Origin: Escherichia coli
GTDB lineage: Bacteria > Pseudomonadota > Gammaproteobacteria > Enterobacterales > Enterobacteriaceae
Strand: one strand, 5' to 3'
Assembly: GCF_050320075.1 (NCBI RefSeq)
Contig: NZ_CP190018.1
Length of the DNA stretch: 64,000 nucleotides
Shown one piece after another: positions 792 through 33,164 of this stretch. A program made the position numbers and the translations under genes. How positions within the stretch are numbered: position 1 is the stretch's first letter; the number at the start of each line of letters is the position of its first letter. A model generated the notes under the pieces. It ran no database searches, was not told where the DNA came from, and saw only the letters and a list, made by a program, of their open reading frames with translations.

Positions 792-1607
792 ATGAGCAGA
801 CATGCAACAGATTGGGCCTGGGAGACAGATCCAGGTAGCTCATCATTAAAGCTCATACTGCTCTCGATGGCTGACAGAGCCGATGAATATAACCTCTGCT
901 ACCCCAGCATAGAACGCCTCGTTAAAGACACTTGCCTGAATAAAAAAACCGTGCAGGCCGGGCTTATATCGCTCATGAAAATGGGGCTTATTTCAGATAC
1001 CGGAGAGAGAAAGGGAGCGACAAAAAGAGTGCGGGTTTTCTCTCTTAATATAACCAAAAACGGGAACATTAAAGGCAACCGGGAAGGGGGTAATGAACCC
1101 GAAATCGGTAATGTTACCGAAAACGGGAATATACCCAAAAACGGGATGTTGAATGATCCCAAAAACGGGATGTTGAATGATCCCAAAAACGGGATCCAGA
1201 ACCAGTCATATAACCAGTCATTTAACCAAGAGAGGGAGAGCAGGACAAAAAGCGGGGATTCTGTGCCTCATGACCCCGGAGCAAACAACGCCGTGATGAA
1301 TAACTTTGTTCCTCCTGGTGGGCCAGGGCAATTAGGCAAATTTGTCATGCATGAACAATGGCAGCCATCAGATGACTTTCTTCGGAAAAGCTCATTGCAG
1401 GGGATCTACCTGGACAGTCTGCCAACGGCACAGGAACTTGCAGAGTTCAGAATTTACTGGATGGCTGAGGGTAAGGCATACCATCAGGCACAGTGGGAGC
1501 AGAAGCTGGCAAGGCGGCTGCAGATTAGCAGACAGAAGCAATCAACATTACCTGATAACAACGTTCCGCACTGGAACAGCCCTGAAGCATGGGAGGATTT
1601 CTTGTGA
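792..1607 (+). CDS. Replication initiator, lambda O-like (N-terminal winged-helix DNA-binding domain, iterons inside the gene)
   Basis: 271 aa; GGAG RBS; repeated peptide PKNGMLND encoded by tandem DNA repeats; immediately followed by the P-like gene. Confidence 0.7.
   Translation: MSRHATDWAWETDPGSSSLKLILLSMADRADEYNLCYPSIERLVKDTCLNKKTVQAGLISLMKMGLISDTGERKGATKRVRVFSLNITKNGNIKGNREGGNEPEIGNVTENGNIPKNGMLNDPKNGMLNDPKNGIQNQSYNQSFNQERESRTKSGDSVPHDPGANNAVMNNFVPPGGPGQLGKFVMHEQWQPSDDFLRKSSLQGIYLDSLPTAQELAEFRIYWMAEGKAYHQAQWEQKLARRLQISRQKQSTLPDNNVPHWNSPEAWEDFL
1054..1200. repeat. Iteron array (probable phage origin): two perfect 24-bp units CCCAAAAACGGGATGTTGAATGAT (1134-1157, 1158-1181), a third truncated unit (1182-1200), and degenerate copies at 1054-1068 and 1116-1130
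   Basis: Direct tandem repeats read in the sequence, followed by the short direct repeat ACCAGTCATATAACCAGTCATTTAACC. Confidence 0.7.
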
Positions 1608-2389
1608 ACAACGTTTTTACCGCGATACAAAACCGTGACGGAGAAGCCCTTTCTCGCATGTCAGGTTATGAGCATCAGTACGTCAACAATGACAATGTGG
1701 TGAACATGTCAGCAGAGAGGCTTGTTGATGCCCTTTTTAAACAGCTGAAACAACTGTTTCCGGCGGCAGTGGTAACCAACCTGAAGACGCCAGAGCAGGA
1801 AGTTGCTGCAAAACAGCAGTGGATTGCTGCGTTTGCCGAAGGGGGGATCCGAACCCGTGAACAGGTTTCTGCTGGTATGCGCCACGCCCGCGCCAGTGAA
1901 TCTCCGTTCTGGCCGTCTCCAGGGCAATTTATCAAGTGGTGCAAAGACAGCAAGATGGTTCTTGGCGTCACCATTGACGATGTGATGGCGGAGTTTCACC
2001 GGTACAGCAAGGAAAAAAGTTTATATCCTGGTGGTCCCGAAAGATTCCCGTGGCGACATCCGGTTATGTACTGGGTCGTATGTGATACCCGCCGTGCAAT
2101 GTATCAGCGCCAGCTTAGCGAGATTGAGGTTGAGAAACACGCACGCAGGCTGCTCGATGATTGGGCGAAAAAGGTGGCTTCCGGACAGCAGATACCCGAT
2201 CCGGTGATCAGCATACAGGCAAAGCCAGAGCCCATGAGTACGCCTCCGGACACAGGGAGAGACGTTTACCATCCACCAGGGCGAAGTTTCGGGTGCATGC
2301 CTAACGCCGCCACCCTTGGGGGAATAACACCGGCGCAGTGGCTGATGGAGGAATACAGGCGGGGAAAGGCGGCAGGATTTATCAAGTAA
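1589..2389 (+). CDS. Replication protein P-like (DnaB helicase loader); start 1589 or GTG 1605
   Basis: Matches my recollection of lambda P, e.g. QQWIAAFAEGGIRTREQVSAGMRHARASESPFWPSPGQFIKWCKD versus lambda RQWVLAFRENGITTMEQVNAGMRVARRQNRPFLPSPGQFVAWCRE. Confidence 0.8.
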   Translation: MGGFLVNNVFTAIQNRDGEALSRMSGYEHQYVNNDNVVNMSAERLVDALFKQLKQLFPAAVVTNLKTPEQEVAAKQQWIAAFAEGGIRTREQVSAGMRHARASESPFWPSPGQFIKWCKDSKMVLGVTIDDVMAEFHRYSKEKSLYPGGPERFPWRHPVMYWVVCDTRRAMYQRQLSEIEVEKHARRLLDDWAKKVASGQQIPDPVISIQAKPEPMSTPPDTGRDVYHPPGRSFGCMPNAATLGGITPAQWLMEEYRRGKAAGFIK

Positions 2390-2915: not shown

Positions 2916-3482
2916 ATGGAAAGTAATATCAAAGGGTTAGTTGCCGCCGGGCATGAGATGGCTTCGGAACTGAAAGCAGAATGTGGTGCCGTTGATATGC
3001 GCAGTGTGGCAAAGCTGATCAGCGATTTGGCAACGCAACTGGAAGTGCAACTGGTGCGTGCTAATGCGCTGGCGGCGGAGAGTGCGGCAATGCATGAAAC
3101 TATTGAAGCCGTTCGGAGTGTTGCGGATAACTCCAGTGGAATTGCCGGATGGCATTTGAATGGCGATATCGCTACATGGGAAGAGATTCTTCCTGAAATT
3201 AACGATATCGAAACTCCAGCCACCGATGCTTTCCTGGCTGAAATTCGTGCGGAAGCACGCAACGAGGGGATTAACTATACCGCCAGCCGTCTTGCTGCTG
3301 CGTTCAATCACGGATTTATCAATAAATCTTTGCGTGAAGTTTTCGACGTTACACGCATGATTTTGTCAGCGAAAGAAGAGTTGGCTAATGAACCGCATCC
3401 GATTGATGGCCTGTCCGGTGAATATGCGGAGAAATCCCTTGAAGAATGGGCGGAACAGATTCGCAAAGGAGGCAAGCAGTGA
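2916..3482 (+). CDS. Hypothetical phage protein (nin-like region)
   Basis: 188 aa ORF, same strand, compact spacing. Confidence 0.5.
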   Translation: MESNIKGLVAAGHEMASELKAECGAVDMRSVAKLISDLATQLEVQLVRANALAAESAAMHETIEAVRSVADNSSGIAGWHLNGDIATWEEILPEINDIETPATDAFLAEIRAEARNEGINYTASRLAAAFNHGFINKSLREVFDVTRMILSAKEELANEPHPIDGLSGEYAEKSLEEWAEQIRKGGKQ

Positions 3483-3778
3483 GTGTATATCTTATTGATA
3501 AACGTCGACGTGGGCAACAAATACCACCTGTAGGAATTCCGAATCACACATGGTTTTGCGTACTTGATATCGATGGTATGGATGCGTTGGTTGACACTCG
3601 TCATTACTGCGATACCGCAACAGCTACTCCGGCGAAAGCAAAGAAAATGGCTGCTCTGATAGAAAACTGGACTCCACCTGATGGTTGGTGCAATGGGAAT
3701 GATCGAGATTGGCATGAAAAAATGAAGGGCTATATCTGCGATTTCTTACGTAAATGCAACGGATTCAGGGTGATGTGA
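3480..3778 (+). CDS. Hypothetical phage protein (GTG start)
   Basis: ORF overlapping the previous stop; start placement uncertain. Confidence 0.4.
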
Positions 3779-3779
3779 C

Positions 3780-4337
3780 ATGAACAAGATTGACTATCAG
3801 GCACTGCGTGAGGCGGCAGAGAAGGCAACGTGGGGAGACTGGGACTCATATAAACCACACCGTGGCGCACGTGGTTATGAGGTCCGACTAAGTAGTCAGG
3901 CCATTGCGCAACACGTTCTGAAAAACAACGCTGAATTTATTGCTGCCTTTAATCCAAAGATTGCTTTGGCACTACTGGATGAACGGGAAAGGAACCAGCA
4001 ATACATCAAATCCCGCGACCAGGAGAACGAGGATATTGCACTAACGGTAGGGAAGTTGCGCGTTGAGCTGGAAGCAGCAAAATCAAAACTCAACGAGCAG
4101 CGTGAGTATTACGAAGGTGTTATCTCTGATGGGAGTAAGCGCATAGCAGAGTTAGAAAGTGGTTCTCAGGCACAAAAGTTAGTTGAAGCAATCATTGTTG
4201 CGATAGAAAACGAACAGGAACGTCTTTTTGATGAAGATTACCTAATGGATTCGAAAGAATGCATTGACGTAATTCGTGAAGAAGTAAAGCGATGGGATGA
4301 TTCCCGCGCCGCTGGCATTGGCATCAAAGGAGAGTGA
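3780..4337 (+). CDS. ead/Ea22-like family protein
   Basis: 185 aa; N-terminus MNKIDYQALREAAEKATWGDWDSY resembles the lambdoid Ea22-like N-terminal signature; coiled-coil middle. Confidence 0.55.
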   Translation: MNKIDYQALREAAEKATWGDWDSYKPHRGARGYEVRLSSQAIAQHVLKNNAEFIAAFNPKIALALLDERERNQQYIKSRDQENEDIALTVGKLRVELEAAKSKLNEQREYYEGVISDGSKRIAELESGSQAQKLVEAIIVAIENEQERLFDEDYLMDSKECIDVIREEVKRWDDSRAAGIGIKGE

Positions 4338-4338
4338 T

Positions 4339-4602
4339 ATGGCAACTTTGACAAAAAAAGAACAAGCATGGTTGAGCGAATTACAGGACGTTCTTGATCG
4401 CTGCCCATCACCGAAAAAAATTGGTTTTTACACCATTGGCGATAAAAGCATTTACCTGTATGACCTGCGCCGCATGGATGAAATCATGGAGGCTCTTGAT
4501 AATCGTTCGTCAATGGATTGGTGTGTTGCTGTTCATGATATGAATGCCGGATTTGATGAAAAGATTTTATTCCCCTCATCAGTTGAAAGTACAGCAGGAT
4601 AA
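4339..4602 (+). CDS. Hypothetical phage protein
   Basis: ATG 4339 preceded by GGAGAG; 87 aa. Confidence 0.45.
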   Translation: MATLTKKEQAWLSELQDVLDRCPSPKKIGFYTIGDKSIYLYDLRRMDEIMEALDNRSSMDWCVAVHDMNAGFDEKILFPSSVESTAG

Positions 4603-4612
4603 GGACTAACAC

Positions 4613-5542
4613 ATGACCACTATTACCAAAGAGCGACTGCTGACAATCAGGCAGTGGCGCGAAACATACGGACCTGGTAGCAACGTTGTACTGCCAGCAG
4701 AAGAAGCGGAAGAACTGGCACGAATTGCTCTGGCATCGCTGGAGCAGAATGTACTATCGGGCAACTCTCCGCTTATTCCTGGTGAAGTGTTGTCCGCAAT
4801 CCGGGAGGTTGCCAGGATTCGTGCCGATTTCGATGATTTTGACGGTGACAGGCGAGGTATCGGTGATTGTCTGGATGAGGCCGAGCAAGAGCTTATCGTT
4901 ACCATTAACAAATATGCCAGTCAGTTGGCAGCAGAACCGATAGCGACTAATGACGTTCGAGAGCAGCAGACAGCCGTTCCGCCAGTTCCGGAAATACAGG
5001 ATGATGTCGCGCAAGCAATTGAAAATCTCAAGCAGAAGTTAGTGGAATGCAATCGCTATAACTACTGCGCAGATGCAGTTAAAGGCGTAGAGGATGCCTG
5101 CCATGCTGCCATGCTTCATAGTGCCGAACCTGCAAGTAATCATGAAGAGTTGCCGCTTGATTATCTCCAAGGTCAAAAAGATGGTCTTGAATGGGCTGCG
5201 CAGCTTGCAGAAGCAAATCACCCACAAACTGGCGACTGGCTTTACGATGACCCGCTGGAGGTGGCTAAAGCTATCAGAAAAGGTCCTGACATGCCCGAAT
5301 TCGATGGACCAACTCCGGCAACTCCGGATGGTTGGATAAGCTGTAGTGAGCGAATGCCGAACGATAAACAGTATGTTTGGTGTTGGGGTAAGTCTTACGG
5401 CTGGACTGAGTGCGATACCTTCGAAGGGTATTACGATTGGTCGAGAAACAAATGGTGGGCAGTTACTGACGATGGGGAAGAACCGGCATCGAAAGTAACC
5501 CACTGGATGCCGCTACCAGAACCGCCGCAGGAGGTGAAGTGA
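4613..5542 (+). CDS. DUF551 domain protein (nin-region type)
   Basis: 309 aa; C-terminal Trp-rich segment WCWGKSYGWTECDTFEGYYDWSRNKWWAV...THWMPLPEPP resembles DUF551. Confidence 0.55.
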   Translation: MTTITKERLLTIRQWRETYGPGSNVVLPAEEAEELARIALASLEQNVLSGNSPLIPGEVLSAIREVARIRADFDDFDGDRRGIGDCLDEAEQELIVTINKYASQLAAEPIATNDVREQQTAVPPVPEIQDDVAQAIENLKQKLVECNRYNYCADAVKGVEDACHAAMLHSAEPASNHEELPLDYLQGQKDGLEWAAQLAEANHPQTGDWLYDDPLEVAKAIRKGPDMPEFDGPTPATPDGWISCSERMPNDKQYVWCWGKSYGWTECDTFEGYYDWSRNKWWAVTDDGEEPASKVTHWMPLPEPPQEVK

Positions 5543-5548
5543 TGAACA

Positions 5549-5671
5549 AGTGCAACGCTCTGCTTTATGCCATGGTGATTGGTTTCGGCCTGGTTGCTGG
5601 TATCCGGGTTTATATTACCTGGGAGTCATTAATCAATCTGGCGTGGAGTGCGATTCGTGGCTAAATCCCCC
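5549..5671 (+). CDS. Small hydrophobic peptide, 40 aa (MNKCNALLYAMVIGFGLVAGIRVYITWESLINLAWSAIRG); not in the ORF track
   Basis: ATG 5549 preceded by strong SD GGAGGTGA; single predicted TM helix; translated by hand. Confidence 0.35.
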
Positions 5672-5995
5672 GCAGAACGCAAAGCCGCGCAGCGCGCTCG
5701 GCAGTCCGCCGCCGGTGAGCGCAAAATTGAACTGGTGCTGGATAAGCAGGAGCAGGAAATGCTGGAGCGTAACTGTGCCACGCGTCGCCCCGGGCGTGCG
5801 CCTTACGAATTTGGGGAGTATATAGCGTTACTGATCCGCCAGGATGATGCACGCGTGCGCGGGCGTATAAAATCGATTAGCAGAAAACGTTGCGGTAAGT
5901 GCGGCGAGAAAGTTCCCGTTAATTCATGCCCGTGTAATGGTGACTCGCAATGCTGGGTGACTAAAGGCTGGCATGAAACGAAATTAATAGTGTGA
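5657..5995 (+). CDS. Hypothetical protein with C-terminal Cys cluster (CGKCGEKVPVNSCPCNGDSQC); possible regulator
   Basis: ORF 5648..5995, likely GTG start at 5657; stop TGA lies inside the GTGACATGTCAC palindrome. Confidence 0.4.
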   Translation: MAKSPAERKAAQRARQSAAGERKIELVLDKQEQEMLERNCATRRPGRAPYEFGEYIALLIRQDDARVRGRIKSISRKRCGKCGEKVPVNSCPCNGDSQCWVTKGWHETKLIV

Positions 5996-6003
5996 CATGT
6001 CAC
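5992..6003. repeat. Perfect 12-bp palindrome GTGACATGTCAC (copy 1)
   Basis: Read directly; overlaps the stop codon at 5993-5995 and precedes the terminator at 6045. Confidence 0.9.
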
Positions 6004-6044
6004 GAGTAGATTATGCATGATGAATTTGATGGGTTTTGAATACT

Positions 6045-6070
6045 GCCGCCAACTATGGCGGCTTTATTTT
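6045..6070 (+). terminator. Rho-independent terminator
   Basis: Hairpin GCCGCC-AACTAT-GGCGGC followed by TTTATTTT. Confidence 0.6.
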
Positions 6071-6081
6071 GCATGGTACTA

Positions 6082-6114
6082 TTACCACAACGGTAACAAT
6101 TACCATGGTGGTTA
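6082..6114. promoter_or_regulatory. Operator-like palindromes at 6082-6096 (TTACCACAACGGTAA) and 6100-6114 (TTACCATGGTGGTTA, degenerate) upstream of terminase genes
   Basis: Read directly; they lie inside the over-extended track ORF 6036..6710. Confidence 0.55.
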
Positions 6115-6710
6115 TGATGCCTGCTGAACCTAAAACCTATAAACGCAAATCAACGCAATTTAAGCCACTAACCGCAATGCAGGAGGCTTATTGCCAGTCA
6201 TACATCAAAACGCCTGAAAACCAGACTCAGGCAGCGATTAACGCAGGATTCTCCCCAAATACAGCGGCAGTTAAAGCCAGTGTCATGATGCGCGATGAAC
6301 GCATTCAAAAACGGATTGCCGAGTTGATGGAGGAGCGCAACAAACGAATGCGCGTCAGTGCCGATTACGTTCTCATGCGCCTGGTGGAGATCGACCAGAT
6401 GGACGTGATTGATATCCTCAATGACGATGGGAGCCTTAAGCCAATCCGCGAGTGGCCGAAAATCTGGCGCACTACGCTTAGTGGCTTTGATCTGTCATCG
6501 ACCATCATGAACATGAACGAGGATTCGATAGAGACAATTCTCAAAAAAATTAAATGGCCTGACAAGGTGAAGAACCTCGAACTGATTGGTAAGCACGTCG
6601 ACGTCAATGCATTCAAAGAACGCCTGGATGTTAATGTGAATGTGACAATTGCTGATCGCATAGCGGCAGCCAGGAAGCGACTCAAAGAACGTCAGGATGG
6701 TAATCAGTGA
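6114..6710 (+). CDS. Terminase small subunit (start trimmed from track ORF 6036; true start 6105-6117 uncertain)
   Basis: Segment LTAMQEAYCQSYIKTPENQTQAAINAGFSPNTAAVKASVMMRDERIQKRIAEL resembles the terminase small-subunit DNA-binding domain; directly upstream of the large subunit. Confidence 0.6.
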   Translation: MMPAEPKTYKRKSTQFKPLTAMQEAYCQSYIKTPENQTQAAINAGFSPNTAAVKASVMMRDERIQKRIAELMEERNKRMRVSADYVLMRLVEIDQMDVIDILNDDGSLKPIREWPKIWRTTLSGFDLSSTIMNMNEDSIETILKKIKWPDKVKNLELIGKHVDVNAFKERLDVNVNVTIADRIAAARKRLKERQDGNQ

Positions 6711-8182
6711 CAGATACAGCGTTATCTCCTGAAGAGCAGTTGATCGAGGATATTGCAGGGTTCACTCACGATCCGCTTGGCTATGCCCTCTATGCGTTCC
6801 CGTGGGGGGAAGAGGGGACTGAACTGGCACATGCTACCGGCCCACGTCAGTGGCAGGCTGATGCGTTCCGAGAGATACGTGATCACCTGCAGAATCCAGA
6901 GACGCGCTATCAGCCGCTTATGCTGGCACGCGCTTCTGGTCACGGTATTGGTAAATCCGCATTCATCTCAATGCTGATCAACTGGGGCATGTCCACTTGC
7001 GAGGATTGTAAGGTCGTGGTGACCGCCAACACCGACAACCAGCTACGAACGAAGACCTGGCCGGAAATTATCAAGTGGTCGAACCTTGCTATCACGAAAG
7101 ACTGGTTTACCTGTACCGCTACTGCGATGTACAGCAATGATCCTGGGCACGACAAGCGGTGGCGAGCTGACGCAATCCCCTGGTCTGAGCACAACACTGA
7201 GGCATTCGCCGGACTACACAACGAGCGCAAACGCATCATCGTGGTATTCGATGAAGCGTCGAACATTGCGGATCTGGTGTGGGAAGTTGCTGAGGGTGCG
7301 CTTACGGACGAAGACACTGAGATTATCTGGGTGGCGTTCGGAAACCCTACACGTAATACCGGGCGTTTTCGCGAATGTTTCCGCAAATACAAACACCGCT
7401 GGAAAACTGCGCAGATTGACAGCCGGACGGTGGAAGGTACTAACAAACAGCAGTTGCAGAAATGGGTTGATGACTACGGGGAAGACAGCGACTTCGTTAA
7501 AATCCGTGTGCGCGGCATATTCCCTGATGCATCTGAATTGCAGTTTATCCCTACCGGTCTTACTGATGAGGCAATGAAACGGGTGGTAACCGCTGCGCAG
7601 GTTGCACATGCTCCGGTGATAATCGGCGTTGACCCGGCATACTCCGGAGTTGATGACGCTGTGATATACCTGCGGCAGGGGCTGCACAGTAAGGTGCTGT
7701 GGACTGGCAACAAGACCACTGACGATCTGATAATGGCGAAGCGTATCGCTGACTTTGAAGACCAGTACCAGGCTGACGCAGTGTTCATCGACTTCGGTTA
7801 CGGAACTGGTCTGAAGTCAATCGGTGACGGCTGGGGTCGTACATGGCAACTTGTTCCGTTCGGTGGCGCGTCTACTGACCCGCAGATGCTCAACAAGCGT
7901 GGGGAGATGTTCAACTCATGCAAGACATGGCTGAGGCTGGGCGGGATGCTGGATGACCAGGAAACAGCAGACGACCTGTCGACGGCAGAGTACAAAGTTC
8001 GCGTGGACGGTAAAATCGTTATCGAACCGAAGGAAGATATCAAGGAGCGGCTTGGGCGTTCGCCGGGTAAAGGCGATGCGCTACTGCTGACGTTTGCGTT
8101 CCCTGTGTCTAAGCGTCTGCGAATTCCCGGGCAGCAGAACCAGCAAGGCAAGGCCATTACAGATTACGATCCCTATGCTTAA
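6707..8182 (+). CDS. Terminase large subunit
   Basis: 491 aa; P-loop-like ASGHGIGKSAF; overlaps the small-subunit stop; typical size and position. Confidence 0.8.
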   Translation: MTDTALSPEEQLIEDIAGFTHDPLGYALYAFPWGEEGTELAHATGPRQWQADAFREIRDHLQNPETRYQPLMLARASGHGIGKSAFISMLINWGMSTCEDCKVVVTANTDNQLRTKTWPEIIKWSNLAITKDWFTCTATAMYSNDPGHDKRWRADAIPWSEHNTEAFAGLHNERKRIIVVFDEASNIADLVWEVAEGALTDEDTEIIWVAFGNPTRNTGRFRECFRKYKHRWKTAQIDSRTVEGTNKQQLQKWVDDYGEDSDFVKIRVRGIFPDASELQFIPTGLTDEAMKRVVTAAQVAHAPVIIGVDPAYSGVDDAVIYLRQGLHSKVLWTGNKTTDDLIMAKRIADFEDQYQADAVFIDFGYGTGLKSIGDGWGRTWQLVPFGGASTDPQMLNKRGEMFNSCKTWLRLGGMLDDQETADDLSTAEYKVRVDGKIVIEPKEDIKERLGRSPGKGDALLLTFAFPVSKRLRIPGQQNQQGKAITDYDPYA

Positions 8183-8847: not shown

Positions 8848-8924
8848 TGGCGTGGCATGCAGGATTCGAACCTGCGACCAACCGCTTAGAAGGCGGTTGC
8901 TCTGTCCAACTGAGCTAATGCCAC
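8848..8924 (-). tRNA. tRNA-Arg (anticodon UCU, reads AGA), phage-borne
   Basis: Hand-folded cloverleaf: 7-bp acceptor stem GTGGCAT/ATGCCAC, D-stem GCTC/GAGC, anticodon stem ACCGC/GCGGT with loop CUUCUAA, T-arm GCAGG-TTCGAAT-CCTGC, encoded 3' CCA. Confidence 0.9.
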
Positions 8925-9352: not shown

Positions 9353-9559
9353 ATGTGCATGGGTAGCTCACCATCAGTGCCTGCAACACCAGAAGTTCAG
9401 GCAGCACCACAGGAGCAGGATGCCGCCGTTGTTGATGCCCGCGACGAAGAAACACGTCGCCGTCGCGCTGCTGCTGGTCGTAGTTCTACGCTGCTTACCG
9501 GTTCTCAGGGCGACACATCAACTGCTAATACCAGCGGTAAAACGCTGCTTGGTCAGTAA
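9353..9559 (+). CDS. Small low-complexity protein (68 aa)
   Basis: GGAG RBS; its translation initiation region (CGGAGTCATTGA + ATG) is nearly identical to that of the portal gene. Confidence 0.45.
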   Translation: MCMGSSPSVPATPEVQAAPQEQDAAVVDARDEETRRRRAAAGRSSTLLTGSQGDTSTANTSGKTLLGQ

Positions 9560-9573
9560 CCGGAGTCATTGAA

Positions 9574-28431: not shown

Positions 28432-31275
28432 ATGACGGTCTCAACCGAAGTTGACCACAACGAATACACAGGTAACGGCGTTACGACATCGTTTCCGTAT
28501 ACTTTTCGAATTTTCAGAAAATCAGACCTGGTTGTTCAGGTGTCTGACCTGAACGGGAACGTAACAGAATTGGTTCTGGATACCGGTTATACGGTAACTG
28601 GGGCGGGCACTTATAGTGGCGGTTCAGTGGTTCTGCCGTCTCCGCTTGCTGCTGGCTGGCGAATTACGATAGATCGTGTGCTTGATGTAGTGCAGGAGAC
28701 AGACCTCCGCAATCAGGGAAAGTTTTTCCCCGAAGTGCATGAAGATGCCTTTGACTACCTGACGATGCTGATCCAGCAATGTTTTGGGTGGTTCAGACGT
28801 GCATTGATGAAGCCCTCTCTGCTTGCAAAATATTACGATGCAAAGCAAAACAGAATTTCTAACCTTGCAGATCCATCACTTGAGCAGGACGCTGTAAATA
28901 ATCGCTCAATGCGTAATTATGTCGATGCTGCAATCGCCGGAGTTGTTGGTGGTTTTGGTTGGTTTATTCAGTATGGTTCTGGGGCAGTATATCGCACCTT
29001 CCAGGACAAGATGCGAGATGAAATAAATGTTCATGATTATGGTGCTATAGGTGATGGAAATTATCACCCGCTTTCTGAACGTTATTCATCGTTGGCTGCT
29101 GCGCAGCAACAATATCCATTTGCTACTTCCCTTGGTCAGTCTATTGACTGGGCTGCAATACAGGCAGCGATCAATGCCTCACAAGGCAGAAAGGTAAAAT
29201 TATTAGCAAAAACATACATTTCTACTGATGGATTCACTGGCGTTGATGGTCTTTGTTTAATTGGTGAAGGTGCTACCCCTTTTTACCTTAACTTTCAGGA
29301 CATTCCATACACCAACAATGGTGGTACTGACATTCTTTTCTATGGTACAGGCCAAAAGAACAGAAGCATTTATGGTATTTCGGATATGCAGCCATCCGGT
29401 GGTGTGAGGACAGATCCTGATTTAGGCGTGACTCATGCATTAACCAATATGACGAATGGAGACGCCAGCACTTCGGCGGCTGCAACCCCTCGAGCAGTAA
29501 GCGCTGGCTTATACCTTGAGCATTGCAAAGGCTGGCAAATTGAGGGAATCCGATTTGCTCCATATTTTAACGGGGTCGAATCATATACAGACCAGACTAA
29601 CTTAGGGCTGGCTGATGAATGGGATATCGGAATTCTCATCAATAGTTCTTATGATGGTGTAATGCGCGATGTTCGCGCGGTTGGGCACTGGCGAGTTGCT
29701 GGCCTGGCTGTGTTTGCAGGCGAAAATCCTTTCAACACAGGCGCGTCATCTTCATGTGAACGAAACAGATTTTTTTCCTGTCAGTTTAATGGAAAGTCTG
29801 GCGTTCTTATTCGCGGCGGGGATGCCTACCGGTGTACAGCAGTAACAGCTGACACTGTCGAAATTCCATGGCACGATTCAAACCCGTTCCGGCATACCGG
29901 TGGGGTATTTCTTGGGGCCTTTGGTGGCGCAACCTCTGCAAGCTATACCTATACCAGCGCAACGGTTACCGGTGATAAGCTGACGCTCCACGGAGTAAGC
30001 CCTAACCCTTTATCGAATGGTATGACAACATCTTCAGGGGTGTATACCGGTAGAAGTTATGGGTTCCAGGGTACGCAATTCTTTGGTTGTTACTTTGGCG
30101 GCCTTGAGCATCAGACTAACCGAGTGGCTACAGACCCGGCGCTTACCTCACCATTCCCTACGTCGTCAAAACCTGTCGAAATTTCAGGTGTTCCGGCAGG
30201 AAATATCAGGTTCTATGGTTGTACGCACATGACCCGGGAAGACTGTGTGTGGATGATCCATAACGCCTCAAATATCTACGACTTCGGAGGCTATTTTGAG
30301 GCCAAGCGAGCGATCACTGCTACTGGCGGCGGCTCGCGCATGGTAGCCATCGGTAATTGGCCTGATTACACCCCGACTGCAGAATCACCATATCCGTTTG
30401 GTACGGTCAGTAACATAAATATGTTCGGTTCGCAGGCTCTTAATTTCGTTGATATGTACCCTGTAGTTGCCCGTTCTACAGGTGTAACGCGCTTTACCTC
30501 CGGGATGTGGGATTGTAAGACCCTCTATAGCTCCGAGGCATTTCAGGATCTTGCTGACACCAACAACTATGTAATAAAGGGTTTACGAAACGAAAGCATA
30601 AGGTTCGAGGACGGAGCCGGCGGCCATCTTATGACCATGCAGAATATTGGCAATCTCCTGCTTGGTAAGCGCGCCAGATTTAACACCTCAACAGAGGATC
30701 GTTATCAGTTCTATCGACTCGATGGAACAACCATTTTCTTATCCCTCGATGGCACGATGTCCACGCCAGTAATGACTCTGGATGGAAACTTTGTCCCTGC
30801 AGTTGCCAATACAAGGTTGGTCGGAACTGCGGCCAAGCCCTTCTCGGGAGGTAATACCCAGACAGCTTATAACATCACTTCTGACCGGAACTACAAAACT
30901 GACTTTGGTGAAATTCCTGACGCCGTTCTGGATGCATGGGAATTGGTGCAGTATTCACAATATAAACTCAGGGATGCAGTTGCGTTGAAGGGGGAAGGCG
31001 CCAGATTACATGTCGGTGTTGTTGCACAGCAGGTGAAAGAGGCATTTGAATCAGTAGGGGTCGATCCTTTTGCATATGGCGTACTGTGCTACGACGAATG
31101 GTCTGGTCAGGAAGAAGTTATTGAGGACGGTGTCATTACGCAGCAAAAAGTGGAAGCAGGGAAGCGTTACAGTGTGCGCTACGAAGAGGCATATGCAATA
31201 GAGTCCGCCTTGCTTCGGAGAACTCATACCAGATTGGAGCAGCGCTTATCTTCTCTTGAAGAAAAATCAAAATAG
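28432..31275 (+). CDS. Tailspike/tail fibre protein with C-terminal intramolecular chaperone (peptidase S74-like) domain
   Basis: 947 aa; GGAG RBS; N-terminal virion-binding-like region; C-terminal region containing SDRNYK and GVVAQQVKEAFESVG resembles autocleaving chaperone domains. Confidence 0.7.
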   Translation: MTVSTEVDHNEYTGNGVTTSFPYTFRIFRKSDLVVQVSDLNGNVTELVLDTGYTVTGAGTYSGGSVVLPSPLAAGWRITIDRVLDVVQETDLRNQGKFFPEVHEDAFDYLTMLIQQCFGWFRRALMKPSLLAKYYDAKQNRISNLADPSLEQDAVNNRSMRNYVDAAIAGVVGGFGWFIQYGSGAVYRTFQDKMRDEINVHDYGAIGDGNYHPLSERYSSLAAAQQQYPFATSLGQSIDWAAIQAAINASQGRKVKLLAKTYISTDGFTGVDGLCLIGEGATPFYLNFQDIPYTNNGGTDILFYGTGQKNRSIYGISDMQPSGGVRTDPDLGVTHALTNMTNGDASTSAAATPRAVSAGLYLEHCKGWQIEGIRFAPYFNGVESYTDQTNLGLADEWDIGILINSSYDGVMRDVRAVGHWRVAGLAVFAGENPFNTGASSSCERNRFFSCQFNGKSGVLIRGGDAYRCTAVTADTVEIPWHDSNPFRHTGGVFLGAFGGATSASYTYTSATVTGDKLTLHGVSPNPLSNGMTTSSGVYTGRSYGFQGTQFFGCYFGGLEHQTNRVATDPALTSPFPTSSKPVEISGVPAGNIRFYGCTHMTREDCVWMIHNASNIYDFGGYFEAKRAITATGGGSRMVAIGNWPDYTPTAESPYPFGTVSNINMFGSQALNFVDMYPVVARSTGVTRFTSGMWDCKTLYSSEAFQDLADTNNYVIKGLRNESIRFEDGAGGHLMTMQNIGNLLLGKRARFNTSTEDRYQFYRLDGTTIFLSLDGTMSTPVMTLDGNFVPAVANTRLVGTAAKPFSGGNTQTAYNITSDRNYKTDFGEIPDAVLDAWELVQYSQYKLRDAVALKGEGARLHVGVVAQQVKEAFESVGVDPFAYGVLCYDEWSGQEEVIEDGVITQQKVEAGKRYSVRYEEAYAIESALLRRTHTRLEQRLSSLEEKSK

Positions 31276-31366
31276 GGGATGGTAATAATTATCCGTATAT
31301 GGTTTATTGTGTATGATGAACTCACCAACTAAGGGGGTTCTTTATGCACAATAAACGGTGGTCATC

Positions 31367-31771
31367 ATGTCGCACTCGTTAACTACGGAGTCGCTAAATC
31401 AGGGGCTTAGCCTGAGCGCGCTGGTTTCCGTATTGGCAGGTGTGCCGCCAGAAGTGGCTTTAGGGGCGCTGGCCGGTGCGGTAATTTTTGTTACCTCTGC
31501 GGTCGAGTACCCCATAAAGCGGCGTTTACTTCTGGCGTTCCTCAGCTTCTTCTGCGGCCTTCTTTTTTATAAACCAGCAGCATCAATTCTTATCGGCATC
31601 GCCAGCCTGATCCCTACTATCACGCAGGACTCTTTTGAAAAAGGGATTGTTTTCTCTGCTGGCGCATTCGTGTCAGCAATTGTTGCTGTGCGTATTGGTA
31701 TATGGCTCTACCACCGTTCCGATAATCCACGCGAGTTAATTCCGGGGAGAAAAGACGATGGTAACGCATGA
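31367..31771 (+). CDS. Holin-like membrane protein
   Basis: About 135 aa, several hydrophobic helices, first gene of the lysis cassette. Confidence 0.45.
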   Translation: MSHSLTTESLNQGLSLSALVSVLAGVPPEVALGALAGAVIFVTSAVEYPIKRRLLLAFLSFFCGLLFYKPAASILIGIASLIPTITQDSFEKGIVFSAGAFVSAIVAVRIGIWLYHRSDNPRELIPGRKDDGNA

Positions 31772-32066
31772 GTTTTTTTTGCTTATCACCAATGCAGTTA
31801 TTTGTACTGGCATAGCAATTCGCGTTGTCACATTCCGGCGTAACGGATCTCAATATCGAAGATTGGGGGGATGGCTTGCTTATTTCCTGATTGTCGCTGC
31901 GGCAAGTATTCCTGTTCGTGTCGTCTATGCAATCTGGTTACGCACGCCAATGGCTGTGGATTTATCCGAGGTCATTATCAATGCTGTCATGCTTGCTGCG
32001 GTTATTAAAACGCGCGGTAACGTCGTTCAGATTTTCAAAATAACGAGGTCTAAACATGGAGATTAA
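31758..32066 (+). CDS. Second small membrane protein (holin/antiholin-like)
   Basis: 102 aa, 2-3 hydrophobic helices, overlaps its neighbours. Confidence 0.4.
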
Positions 32067-32685
32067 ACAATTCCAGCGAGCTGCTGATATTAGTGAGGCG
32101 CTGACCGCCCGATGGTTCTCGCATATAACTTCTGCGATGAAAGAGTTTGGTATTAGCAAAGCAGAAGATCAGGCTATGTTTATTGCTCAGGTCGGGCATG
32201 AGTCTGGTGGCTTCACCAGGTTGCAGGAGAATTTCAATTACAGCGTCACCGGACTGGCTAACTTCGTTCGTGCCGGTCGTCTCACTCAGGGACAGGCCAA
32301 CGCACTGGGTCGCCGTGCTGGTGAACCGCCATTACCACTCGAGCGCCAGCGCGCGATCGCAAATCTGGTGTACAGCAAACGCATGGGTAACAATGCTCCT
32401 GGCGATGGATGGAACTACCGTGGGCGCGGACTTATCCAGATTACCGGTTTGAATAACTATCGTGACTGTGGAAACGGCCTTAATGCTGACCTGCTGGAGA
32501 GTCCTGAACTGCTGGCGCAGGACGAATACGCGGCTCGTAGCGCGGCGTGGTTCTTCTCCAGCAAAGGCTGCATGAAGTATACCGGAGATATTGCACGTGT
32601 AACTCTGATTATCAATGGTGGCCGGAACGGCATCGACGACCGGCGCGCGCGGTACATCACTGCCAGTAAGGTGCTGGCTGTATGA
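32056..32685 (+). CDS. Endolysin, glycoside hydrolase family 19 (chitinase-like lysozyme)
   Basis: 209 aa; [12 protein letters not shown] and [13 protein letters not shown] segments resemble the GH19 catalytic region; GAGG RBS. Confidence 0.7.
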
Positions 32686-33164
32686 TCTTGGCATTCGCAA
32701 AAGCATACTGGAAACAGTTGGTTATCATGGCGATGATTGCTGTTCTGGTCATATCAGGAGTTGTAGTCTGGAATGCACACGGCAGTCGTCAGTACGATGC
32801 CGGGTATGCGCAGGCGGAAGAAGACCGCAAAGACGAAGAAGACAAATTTCGTCAGTACTACGAACAGGAGAAAGTGACCAATGAACGTGAAGCGCAGCAG
32901 AGGATCGATCAGGCGCGCAGTGATGCTCTTGATGCTGCCGCTCGCGCTGGCAGGTTGCAGCAACAGCTCGTTGCCATCCGTGAGCAGCTCAGGCAGTATA
33001 ACGCCATTGTCGGCGCTGGGACGTCAGCCGCAGACACCGGAGTTTTGCTTGCCGACGTGCTCAGCAAATCTCTCGAGAGAAACAGACAACTGGCAGAGTA
33101 TGCTGACCGGGCAGCCGAAGCAGGAAGAGTCTGCGAAAAACAGTATGACACCCTGACCAGATAG
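32682..33164 (+). CDS. Rz-like inner-membrane spanin (i-spanin)
   Basis: 160 aa; N-terminal TM helix then coiled coil; start overlaps the endolysin stop. Confidence 0.6.
32923..33156 (+). CDS. Rz1-like outer-membrane lipoprotein spanin (o-spanin), embedded in Rz in the +1 frame
   Basis: [12 protein letters not shown] lipobox followed by a Pro/Ser-rich short protein, wholly inside the Rz gene. Confidence 0.6.
   Translation: MLLMLPLALAGCSNSSLPSVSSSGSITPLSALGRQPQTPEFCLPTCSANLSRETDNWQSMLTGQPKQEESAKNSMTP

Follow-up and report, generated by a model that had tools for sequence, protein, structure and literature searches.

AcrZ, MgrB, SgrT and SidA work by binding larger membrane proteins and modulating them, and GxxxG-type faces of small residues serve the tight packing of one helix against another. 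Other short hydrophobic α-helical peptides are found on mobile elements, among them Hok/Gef, Ldr, TisB, Ibs and YdfD of Qin, and phages also encode small membrane-helix proteins as holins and antiholins. Small membrane proteins of phages have received little study, and several turned out to inhibit host membrane machines with precision. The field of bacterial small membrane proteins was reviewed, including the small toxins of prophages (PMC12648545, section 13), the hydrophobic microproteins of Enterobacteriaceae were surveyed (PMC11188072) and small-gene families were predicted in phage genomes (Fremin et al. 2022, PMC9254267, as cited in PMC11188072).

The window analysed here, a stretch of 64,000 nucleotides of Escherichia coli DNA, holds a prophage with a gene for a hydrophobic peptide of 40 amino acids. 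The peptide resembles AcrZ, MgrB, MgtS, SgrT and SidA in its size class of 30-50 amino acids, in one predicted transmembrane helix, in small-residue packing motifs and in having no enzymatic domain. By analogy, its presumed action would also be the binding of a larger membrane protein. It has no sequence similarity to these proteins; the likeness lies in the working mode, not in the family. Moreover, the peptide is phage-borne and encoded in an early lytic block, whereas the five proteins are chromosomal and stress-regulated. With Hok/Gef, Ldr, TisB, Ibs and YdfD it shares the short hydrophobic helix and the mobile element, but no antisense RNA gene, own promoter or long regulated 5′ UTR was evident at the locus, and its translation appears to be coupled. 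Unlike holin and antiholin genes, the peptide gene is not located beside an endolysin gene, and its position predicts early rather than late expression. The peptide fits the class of conserved small ORFs, often transmembrane and under purifying selection, that was catalogued in the two surveys (PMC9254267, PMC11188072), which list such ORFs without functions. It is an uncharacterised example of a well-known class, the small phage-encoded membrane proteins. The features of the locus are compiled in Table 1.

Table 1. Features of the peptide gene and its prophage surroundings, in window coordinates
Feature	Position	Strand	Evidence or remark
Replication initiator and P-like helicase loader (O/P-like)	792-2389	+	
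Ead/Ea22-like and DUF551 accessory genes	2916-5542	+	
Upstream gene, 309 aa, Ea22-like N-terminal part, C-terminal DUF551	4613..5542	+	DUF551 E 2e-17
Shine-Dalgarno sequence GGAGGTGA	5530..5537	+	Within the final P-Q-E-V-K codons of the upstream gene
Small-protein CDS, 40 aa plus TAA stop	5542..5664	+	PHROG 5525 member; ORF intact in 66/66 loci
Predicted transmembrane core NALLYAMVIGFGLVAGIRV, codons 5-23	5554..5610	+	Hydropathy, invariant columns, distant members, AF2 helix
Amphipathic C-terminal helix (predicted) TWESLINLAWSAIR, codons 26-39, conserved W27/W35	5617..5658	+	Hydrophobic moment, conservation
Downstream 112-aa gene (MAKSPAERKAAQ...), PHROG 536 'transcriptional regulator'	5657..5995	+	PHROG match, EC.W1-9 annotation
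Perfect 12-bp palindrome GTGACATGTCAC	5992..6003	.	Overlaps the stop of the 112-aa gene
Gap with palindrome and terminator-like hairpin	5996-6116		Palindrome begins at 5992
Terminator-like GC hairpin GCCGCCAACTATGGCGGC plus T-run	6045..6071	+	Between regulator gene and terS; first + strand site of this kind in the scan of 3000-7000
terS and terL	from about 6117, to 8182	+	
Tail spike	28432-31275	+	
Two holins, endolysin, spanin	31358-33164	+	

A 40-codon ORF behind a strong ribosome-binding site, missed by a 60-aa ORF cut-off, had been claimed in the original prediction for positions 5549-5671. Both the ORF and the Shine-Dalgarno sequence ahead of its ATG were found, and the 60-aa cut-off had indeed hidden the ORF. 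Both ends of the interval were displaced by +7: position 5549 reads AGT and is out of frame. The sequence around the gene, ...CCGCAGGAGGTGAAGTGATGAACAAGTGC..., contains the ATG at 5542-5544 and the TAA at 5662-5664, and the product is MNKCNALLYAMVIGFGLVAGIRVYITWESLINLAWSAIRG. The GGAGG core is separated from the ATG by 7 nt. An alternative in-frame GTG at 5539 would yield a peptide of 41 amino acids. At the upstream junction, the TGA stop of the preceding gene (5540-5542) shares one base with the ATG, reading TGATG. At the downstream junction, the GTG start of the 112-aa gene precedes the peptide stop by 5 nt, and the two genes overlap by 8 nt (GTGGCTAA). This GTG was accepted as the true start because distant loci have ATG at the same place and the annotation of Escherichia phage EC.W1-9 agrees.

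Conservation of the ORF in related loci, which had been proposed as a check, was confirmed at the protein level. A scan of IMG/VR returned 68 peptide loci, of which 66 span the whole ORF and the other two only residues 19-40. In all 66 full-cover loci the ORF was intact and preceded by a GGAGG-type Shine-Dalgarno sequence 4-8 nt upstream, also where the upstream genes were unrelated. Eight of the IMG/VR loci carried variants of 45 amino acids with 58-63% identity, in which the core motif was retained. For 24 distinct nucleotide versions, the Nei-Gojobori dN/dS was 0.16 in the peptide's own frame, compared with 0.98 and 2.07 in the other two frames. Variable columns numbered 25, 12 and 37 at first, second and third codon positions. 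In five pairwise comparisons, 60-90% of the synonymous sites but only 10-26% of the non-synonymous sites were changed (Fisher p 2e-7 to 6e-9, in any case ≤8e-7). The low dN/dS in this frame only, together with the conservation in 66/66 loci, therefore identifies a genuine coding gene, and the ORF is almost certainly real. The rival reading would be a chance ORF, and no gene, in a DNA stretch conserved for other reasons; it could appeal to the shortness of the ORF and to close prophages that are near-identical in DNA anyway. This reading is refuted at the sequence level, and its probability is negligible, given substitutions that cluster at third codon positions, dN/dS far below 1 in the own frame alone and the start, Shine-Dalgarno sequence and stop retained throughout the 66 loci. 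Two loci (L062 and L067) also reached synonymous saturation (pS 0.8-0.9) while the protein was still about 60% identical.

The gene had been described as unannotated, which holds solely under the 60-aa cut-off; entries exist in GenBank and RefSeq, as does a PHROG family. The peptide matched PHROG 5525, a family without assigned function, with E 3.1e-29 and residues 1-40 on profile positions 1-40 of 40; weak matches to PHROG 11686 and 4835 likewise concerned function-less families. Under the name 'hypothetical protein', the same CDS is annotated as WYA78225.1 in phage EC.W1-9, as WP_025269968.1 by PGAP in E. coli 98223 and as WP_261629295.1 by PGAP in E. coli FDAARGOS_497, there with 41 aa and 100% identical DNA. 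Identical or near-identical annotated CDSs were present in the phages EC.W1-9 and phiv142-3 and in about 3% of complete E. coli genomes; at least 80% of the ORF was found in 163 of 5426 of these genomes. Among the E. coli genome matches listed, the CDS under the peptide match was a 'hypothetical protein'. Several E. coli genomes carried just half of the ORF. The exact 40-aa sequence occurred on 698 contigs, and one member of its cluster was UniProt A0A0D0LT16_ECOLX.

Relatives were sought in larger protein collections. A word-indexed search of 5.8 billion proteins gave 28 clusters at E ≤ 0.01, 21 of them near-full-length with 78-98% identity. The named clusters came from E. coli, Klebsiella aerogenes and Citrobacter freundii; other Klebsiella species, Raoultella, Pseudescherichia and Salmonella were added by the 90%-identity clusters. 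An exhaustive profile search of 1.84 billion representatives yielded only 18 matches at E ≤ 1e-3 and no link to a characterised family. These matches were members of the same small family, fragments or fusions, except for one repetitive protein of 2840 aa that was taken as spurious. They included three distant members (P0031, P0036 and P0038), which define the core MSK..(L/F)(Y/F)[AS]x(V/I)(I/V)GFGxxxG(I/V/M)[R/H/Q]x(Y/F)IxW. Longer database versions of 58-70 aa (P0002, P0005 and others) were rejected, because gene callers had run the start back into the 3′ end of the preceding gene, which is read in another frame, and the additions were not conserved across contexts. A chimeric ORF of 55 aa (P0035) consisted of the first 20 residues of the peptide and the C-terminal end of a large terminase (…KGDALLLTFAFPV…; compare 8090-8182 in the window) and indicates a deletion remnant in some prophage. 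Scans of the peptide against Pfam, NCBIfam and PADLOC gave no meaningful match. A literature search by sequence, accessions and PHROG identifiers found, within the searchable library, no paper mentioning the peptide and no experimental report on its translation, membrane localisation or phenotype; general searches gave reviews and catalogues. The existence of the gene is already catalogued, and it is without a characterised homologue.

The single transmembrane segment claimed in the original prediction was recovered as one hydrophobic stretch, and the product is probably a single-pass membrane peptide. The best 19-residue Kyte-Doolittle mean was 1.97 for residues 7-25, above the usual threshold of 1.6. 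AF2 with the family alignment gave one uninterrupted helix for residues 3-39 with pLDDT 89, a model that adds little and is uninformative on function, as almost any such peptide is predicted to be helical. Invariant positions in the family alignment were K3, L7, L8, Y9, M11, G14, G16, A19, G20, Y24, W27 and W35. They include the core motif G14-F-G16-x-x-x-G20, and position 22 held a conserved basic or polar residue. Small-residue faces were formed by G16xxxG20 and by A6, [A/S]10 and G14. About 15-18 residues lie between Y9 and the group of R/H22, Y24 and W27, as expected for two membrane interfaces. The predicted helix and these interfacial residues are those of a single-pass (bitopic) membrane protein, whose insertion is predicted from sequence and model. 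For residues 26-39, the hydrophobic moment was 0.53 and the mean hydrophobicity 0.23. The orientation of the peptide was not callable because the net charge is about +1 on both flanks of the hydrophobic span. The conserved residues sit on two opposite helix faces, so that a homo-oligomeric bundle, as in a toxin or pore, would fit as well as a heteromeric complex.

The prophage early region in which the gene had been placed was borne out by replication genes upstream and terminase genes downstream. The peptide gene is the next-to-last of a tightly packed, same-strand rightward early block, shortly ahead of the terminase genes, and 26 kb separate it from the lysis cassette. The scan of 3000-7000 showed no convincing promoter near the peptide gene and no terminator-like site on the + strand before 6045. 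Upstream conservation across differing upstream genes amounted to only about 17-25 nt, which is too short for a dedicated promoter. As no promoter is evident and no terminator precedes 6045, the peptide would be made with the early transcript after induction. The terminator-like hairpin was kept in 95 of 133 loci and is probably where the early block with the peptide gene ends. Its position at the early/late boundary hints at antitermination or activator-dependent late transcription. The 12-bp palindrome was kept in 125 of the 133 regulator-bearing loci, even where the DNA farther downstream differs, and could be an operator or part of a late promoter on which the putative regulator acts. An Rfam scan gave a sub-threshold rseX-like match at 5984-6069, overlapping the hairpin, with 27.8 bits against a gathering score of 50; this match is probably due to chance. 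The mechanical ORF of terS begins at TTG 6036 and traverses the terminator-like hairpin, and the EC.W1-9 homologue (197 aa) corresponds to ATG 6117. ATG 6117 is the more plausible start of terS.

In temperate phages of enterobacteria, the peptide gene is an accessory cassette that the rightward early block may have or lack. Its hosts and elements comprised about 3% of complete E. coli genomes, prophages of Klebsiella, Salmonella, Citrobacter and Raoultella, and P1-like phage-plasmids. In 58 of the 66 peptide loci the 112-aa gene was directly downstream with the same overlap, including relatives at about 60% identity. The putative regulator was far commoner than the peptide, with at least 576 stretches in IMG/VR. 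Among its best 78 readable loci, the peptide was present in 11 and absent in 67; in regulator loci without the peptide, NinX/DUF2591-like or ASCH-like genes ended on the identical ATGGCTAA overlap. Conversely, the peptide was intact without the full regulator in at least eight loci, where the regulator was cut after about 12 codons or absent. These settings included lambdoid nin regions beside DUF1367, RusA and Q genes, one locus with an ASCH-like next gene, one contig beside an integrase and P1-like phage-plasmids with homologues of hot, humD, phd and doc. The most distant peptide relatives were all without the regulator, and among P1-like phage-plasmids, relatives of P0038 were found by tblastn in SJ46 and vB_EcoM-813R1. 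At least 10 different genes preceded the peptide, and most of them ended in ...PQEVK*, the codons that supply the Shine-Dalgarno sequence. Two short junctions recurred between many gene pairs (5526-5544 and 5657-5664; loci L004-L157), namely CAGGAGGTGAAGTGATG, which encodes the '...PQEVK*' tail, and RTGGCTAA. These junctions look like recombination linkers for mosaic accessory modules. Since the peptide and the regulator were each found without the other, an obligate leader role is ruled out and a dedicated partnership is weakened.

The downstream 112-aa protein is a putative regulator, a label taken only from PHROG 536 and RefSeq. Cys 40, 79, 82, 91 and 99 were invariant and C93 nearly so, and its N-terminal half was predicted as helix, extended segment, helix and helix. 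A ribbon-helix-helix domain followed by a Cys-rich domain was suspected from this secondary-structure pattern, was unconfirmed by AF2 and Foldseek and is not claimed. The AF2 model reached a pLDDT of only 62, and searches of Pfam, NCBIfam, PDB sequence profiles and Foldseek against PDB gave no match. The protein is thus best described as an uncharacterised, abundant, putative late regulator. In the FDAARGOS_497 relative (locus L002, 7069-8962; DNA 100% identical over 5450-5750), PGAP calls the DUF551 and 112-aa genes frameshifted or partial pseudogenes, and both are intact in the window. These pseudogenes reflect either strain decay or assembly errors.

Known functional classes were compared with the peptide and its surroundings. 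A type I toxin of the Hok, Ldr, TisB, Ibs or ShoB type was rejected: no Rfam family reached threshold in 4500-6800 that would provide an antisense RNA, and no promoter- or terminator-like site was found on the minus strand near 5400-5800. Nor is the gene a stand-alone unit, with its ATG overlapping the upstream stop and about 20 nt conserved upstream. A holin was rejected on account of the distant lysis cassette and the lack of a holin match in PHROG or Pfam. Membership in a Kil-type family (lambda Kil, KilR, DicB) was dismissed as well; the only Pfam match with E ≤ 1 was DUF4134 (E 0.099, below the cut-off) and the PHROG matches were function-less. A lipoprotein exclusion factor such as Cor or Llp does not fit, as the sole Cys is residue 4 without a preceding signal sequence and the distant members P0031, P0036 and P0038 have no Cys there. 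No PADLOC match at E ≤ 0.1 was obtained for the peptide or four neighbouring proteins, and a known anti-phage defence component was discarded. The original suggestions of a toxin, a Kil-like inhibitor or a regulator were in this way answered negatively for a type I toxin architecture, a holin, a Kil or other Pfam family, a defence component and a leader peptide; toxin and regulatory roles of other kinds are weighed below.

The preferred reading, held with slightly better than even confidence, is a real gene for a 40-aa bitopic inner-membrane modulator, carried as an optional cassette of the early block. The mechanism itself, in which early, coupled translation is followed by glycine-face binding that alters a larger inner-membrane protein, is more tentative and was given somewhat less than an even chance. 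The gene has no dedicated promoter evident and, once the prophage is induced, would probably share a transcript with the replication, Ea22 and DUF551 genes. Translation would probably rely on the strong Shine-Dalgarno sequence and on termination-reinitiation at the upstream stop, and the end of the peptide gene would be coupled likewise to the putative regulator, the last gene before the terminase operon. The peptide would insert as one helix, with residues ~5-23 spanning the membrane, Y9 at one interface and R22, Y24 and W27 at the other; residues 26-39 would form an amphipathic juxtamembrane helix. Its action would be non-enzymatic, the invariant GFGxxxG face packing onto a larger host (or phage) inner-membrane protein and modulating it. 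The benefit is likely a non-essential host-takeover or exclusion advantage in lytic growth.

The main rival is a membrane-damaging or growth-arresting toxin (Kil-, holin- or Hok-like), whose self-assembled bundle would depolarise the membrane or block division and thereby aid host shut-off after induction. The peptide resembles pore-forming peptides in being a short hydrophobic helix whose two faces (A6/A10/G14 and G16/G20) bear small-xxx-small motifs, the strong Shine-Dalgarno sequence suggests abundant synthesis, and the gene, as with other phage kil genes, is dispensable and has a patchy distribution. However, it lies among close-packed genes of the same strand, neither an antisense promoter nor an antisense terminator was seen nearby, no antitoxin RNA of Rfam was matched, the peptide matches no holin or toxin family in PHROG, Pfam or PADLOC, and the phage has two holins of its own 26 kb away. 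An unregulated depolariser made early and at high level would also be expected to harm phage production, and a toxin is considered unlikely. Still less probable is that the peptide is a dedicated partner of the 112-aa protein and, as its membrane tether or anti-regulator, times the early-to-late switch, synthesis of the two being matched through the 8-nt overlap. The shared neighbourhood in 58/66 peptide loci could mean functional partnership rather than shared ancestry, and the conserved palindrome and terminator 3′ of the regulator gene, ahead of terS, would suit a switch. Against such a partnership, the regulator lacks the peptide in 67 of its best 78 loci and has unrelated genes at the same junction, at least eight loci and all of the most distant relatives have an intact peptide but no full regulator, and the overlap sequence is a generic module linker.

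The same junctions could point to a translational-coupling leader (uORF), in which ribosome traverse feeds the weak GTG of the regulator and the peptide itself is irrelevant. That GTG has no obvious Shine-Dalgarno sequence inside the 3′ end of the peptide gene, and overlaps exist at both junctions. Yet purifying selection on amino acids is strong along the whole ORF, invariant residues persist to about 45% identity, the ORF survives ahead of truncated regulators, and in other loci the genes coupled to the regulator from upstream are quite dissimilar. With an association that is not obligate, a leader role was rejected; it is largely refuted on these sequence grounds and very improbable. Returning to the inner-membrane modulator, an extension of this reading would make the peptide the founding member of an uncharacterised family of early phage proteins, whose GFGxxxG transmembrane face would bind one particular machine of the host inner membrane. 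This extension is rather doubtful. Its targets may be a component of the divisome or elongasome, a transporter that phages use as receptor or for entry, or a defence sensor bound to the membrane. If it holds, the peptide would be a transmembrane inhibitor of phage origin that is new itself and has a new target.

At present, the peptide adds one more conserved hypothetical accessory gene, and the understanding of this prophage is unchanged. The family is tiny, easy to synthesise, clearly under selection and present in several enterobacterial genera, and is therefore a cheap candidate for a toxicity or interaction screen. In practice, genes that standard pipelines such as PGAP do call escape notice when ORFs are cut off at 60 aa.

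ATG-initiated ORFs of 30-60 aa with a Shine-Dalgarno 5-mer and a hydrophobic stretch of transmembrane grade numbered two in the window, compared with a mean of 0.1 in first-order Markov random sequences. The second such ORF, at 9420-9572 (+), encodes 50 aa with a Kyte-Doolittle value of 2.38, has a Shine-Dalgarno-like 5-mer and ends just 5′ of the portal gene. The 68-aa gene that relatives have annotated ahead of the portal gene is at another position, so this ORF may be due to chance. Between terL and the portal gene, the prophage also carries a tRNA-Arg gene (anticodon TCT) at 8848-8924 (-), which is annotated in the FDAARGOS_497 relative as well.
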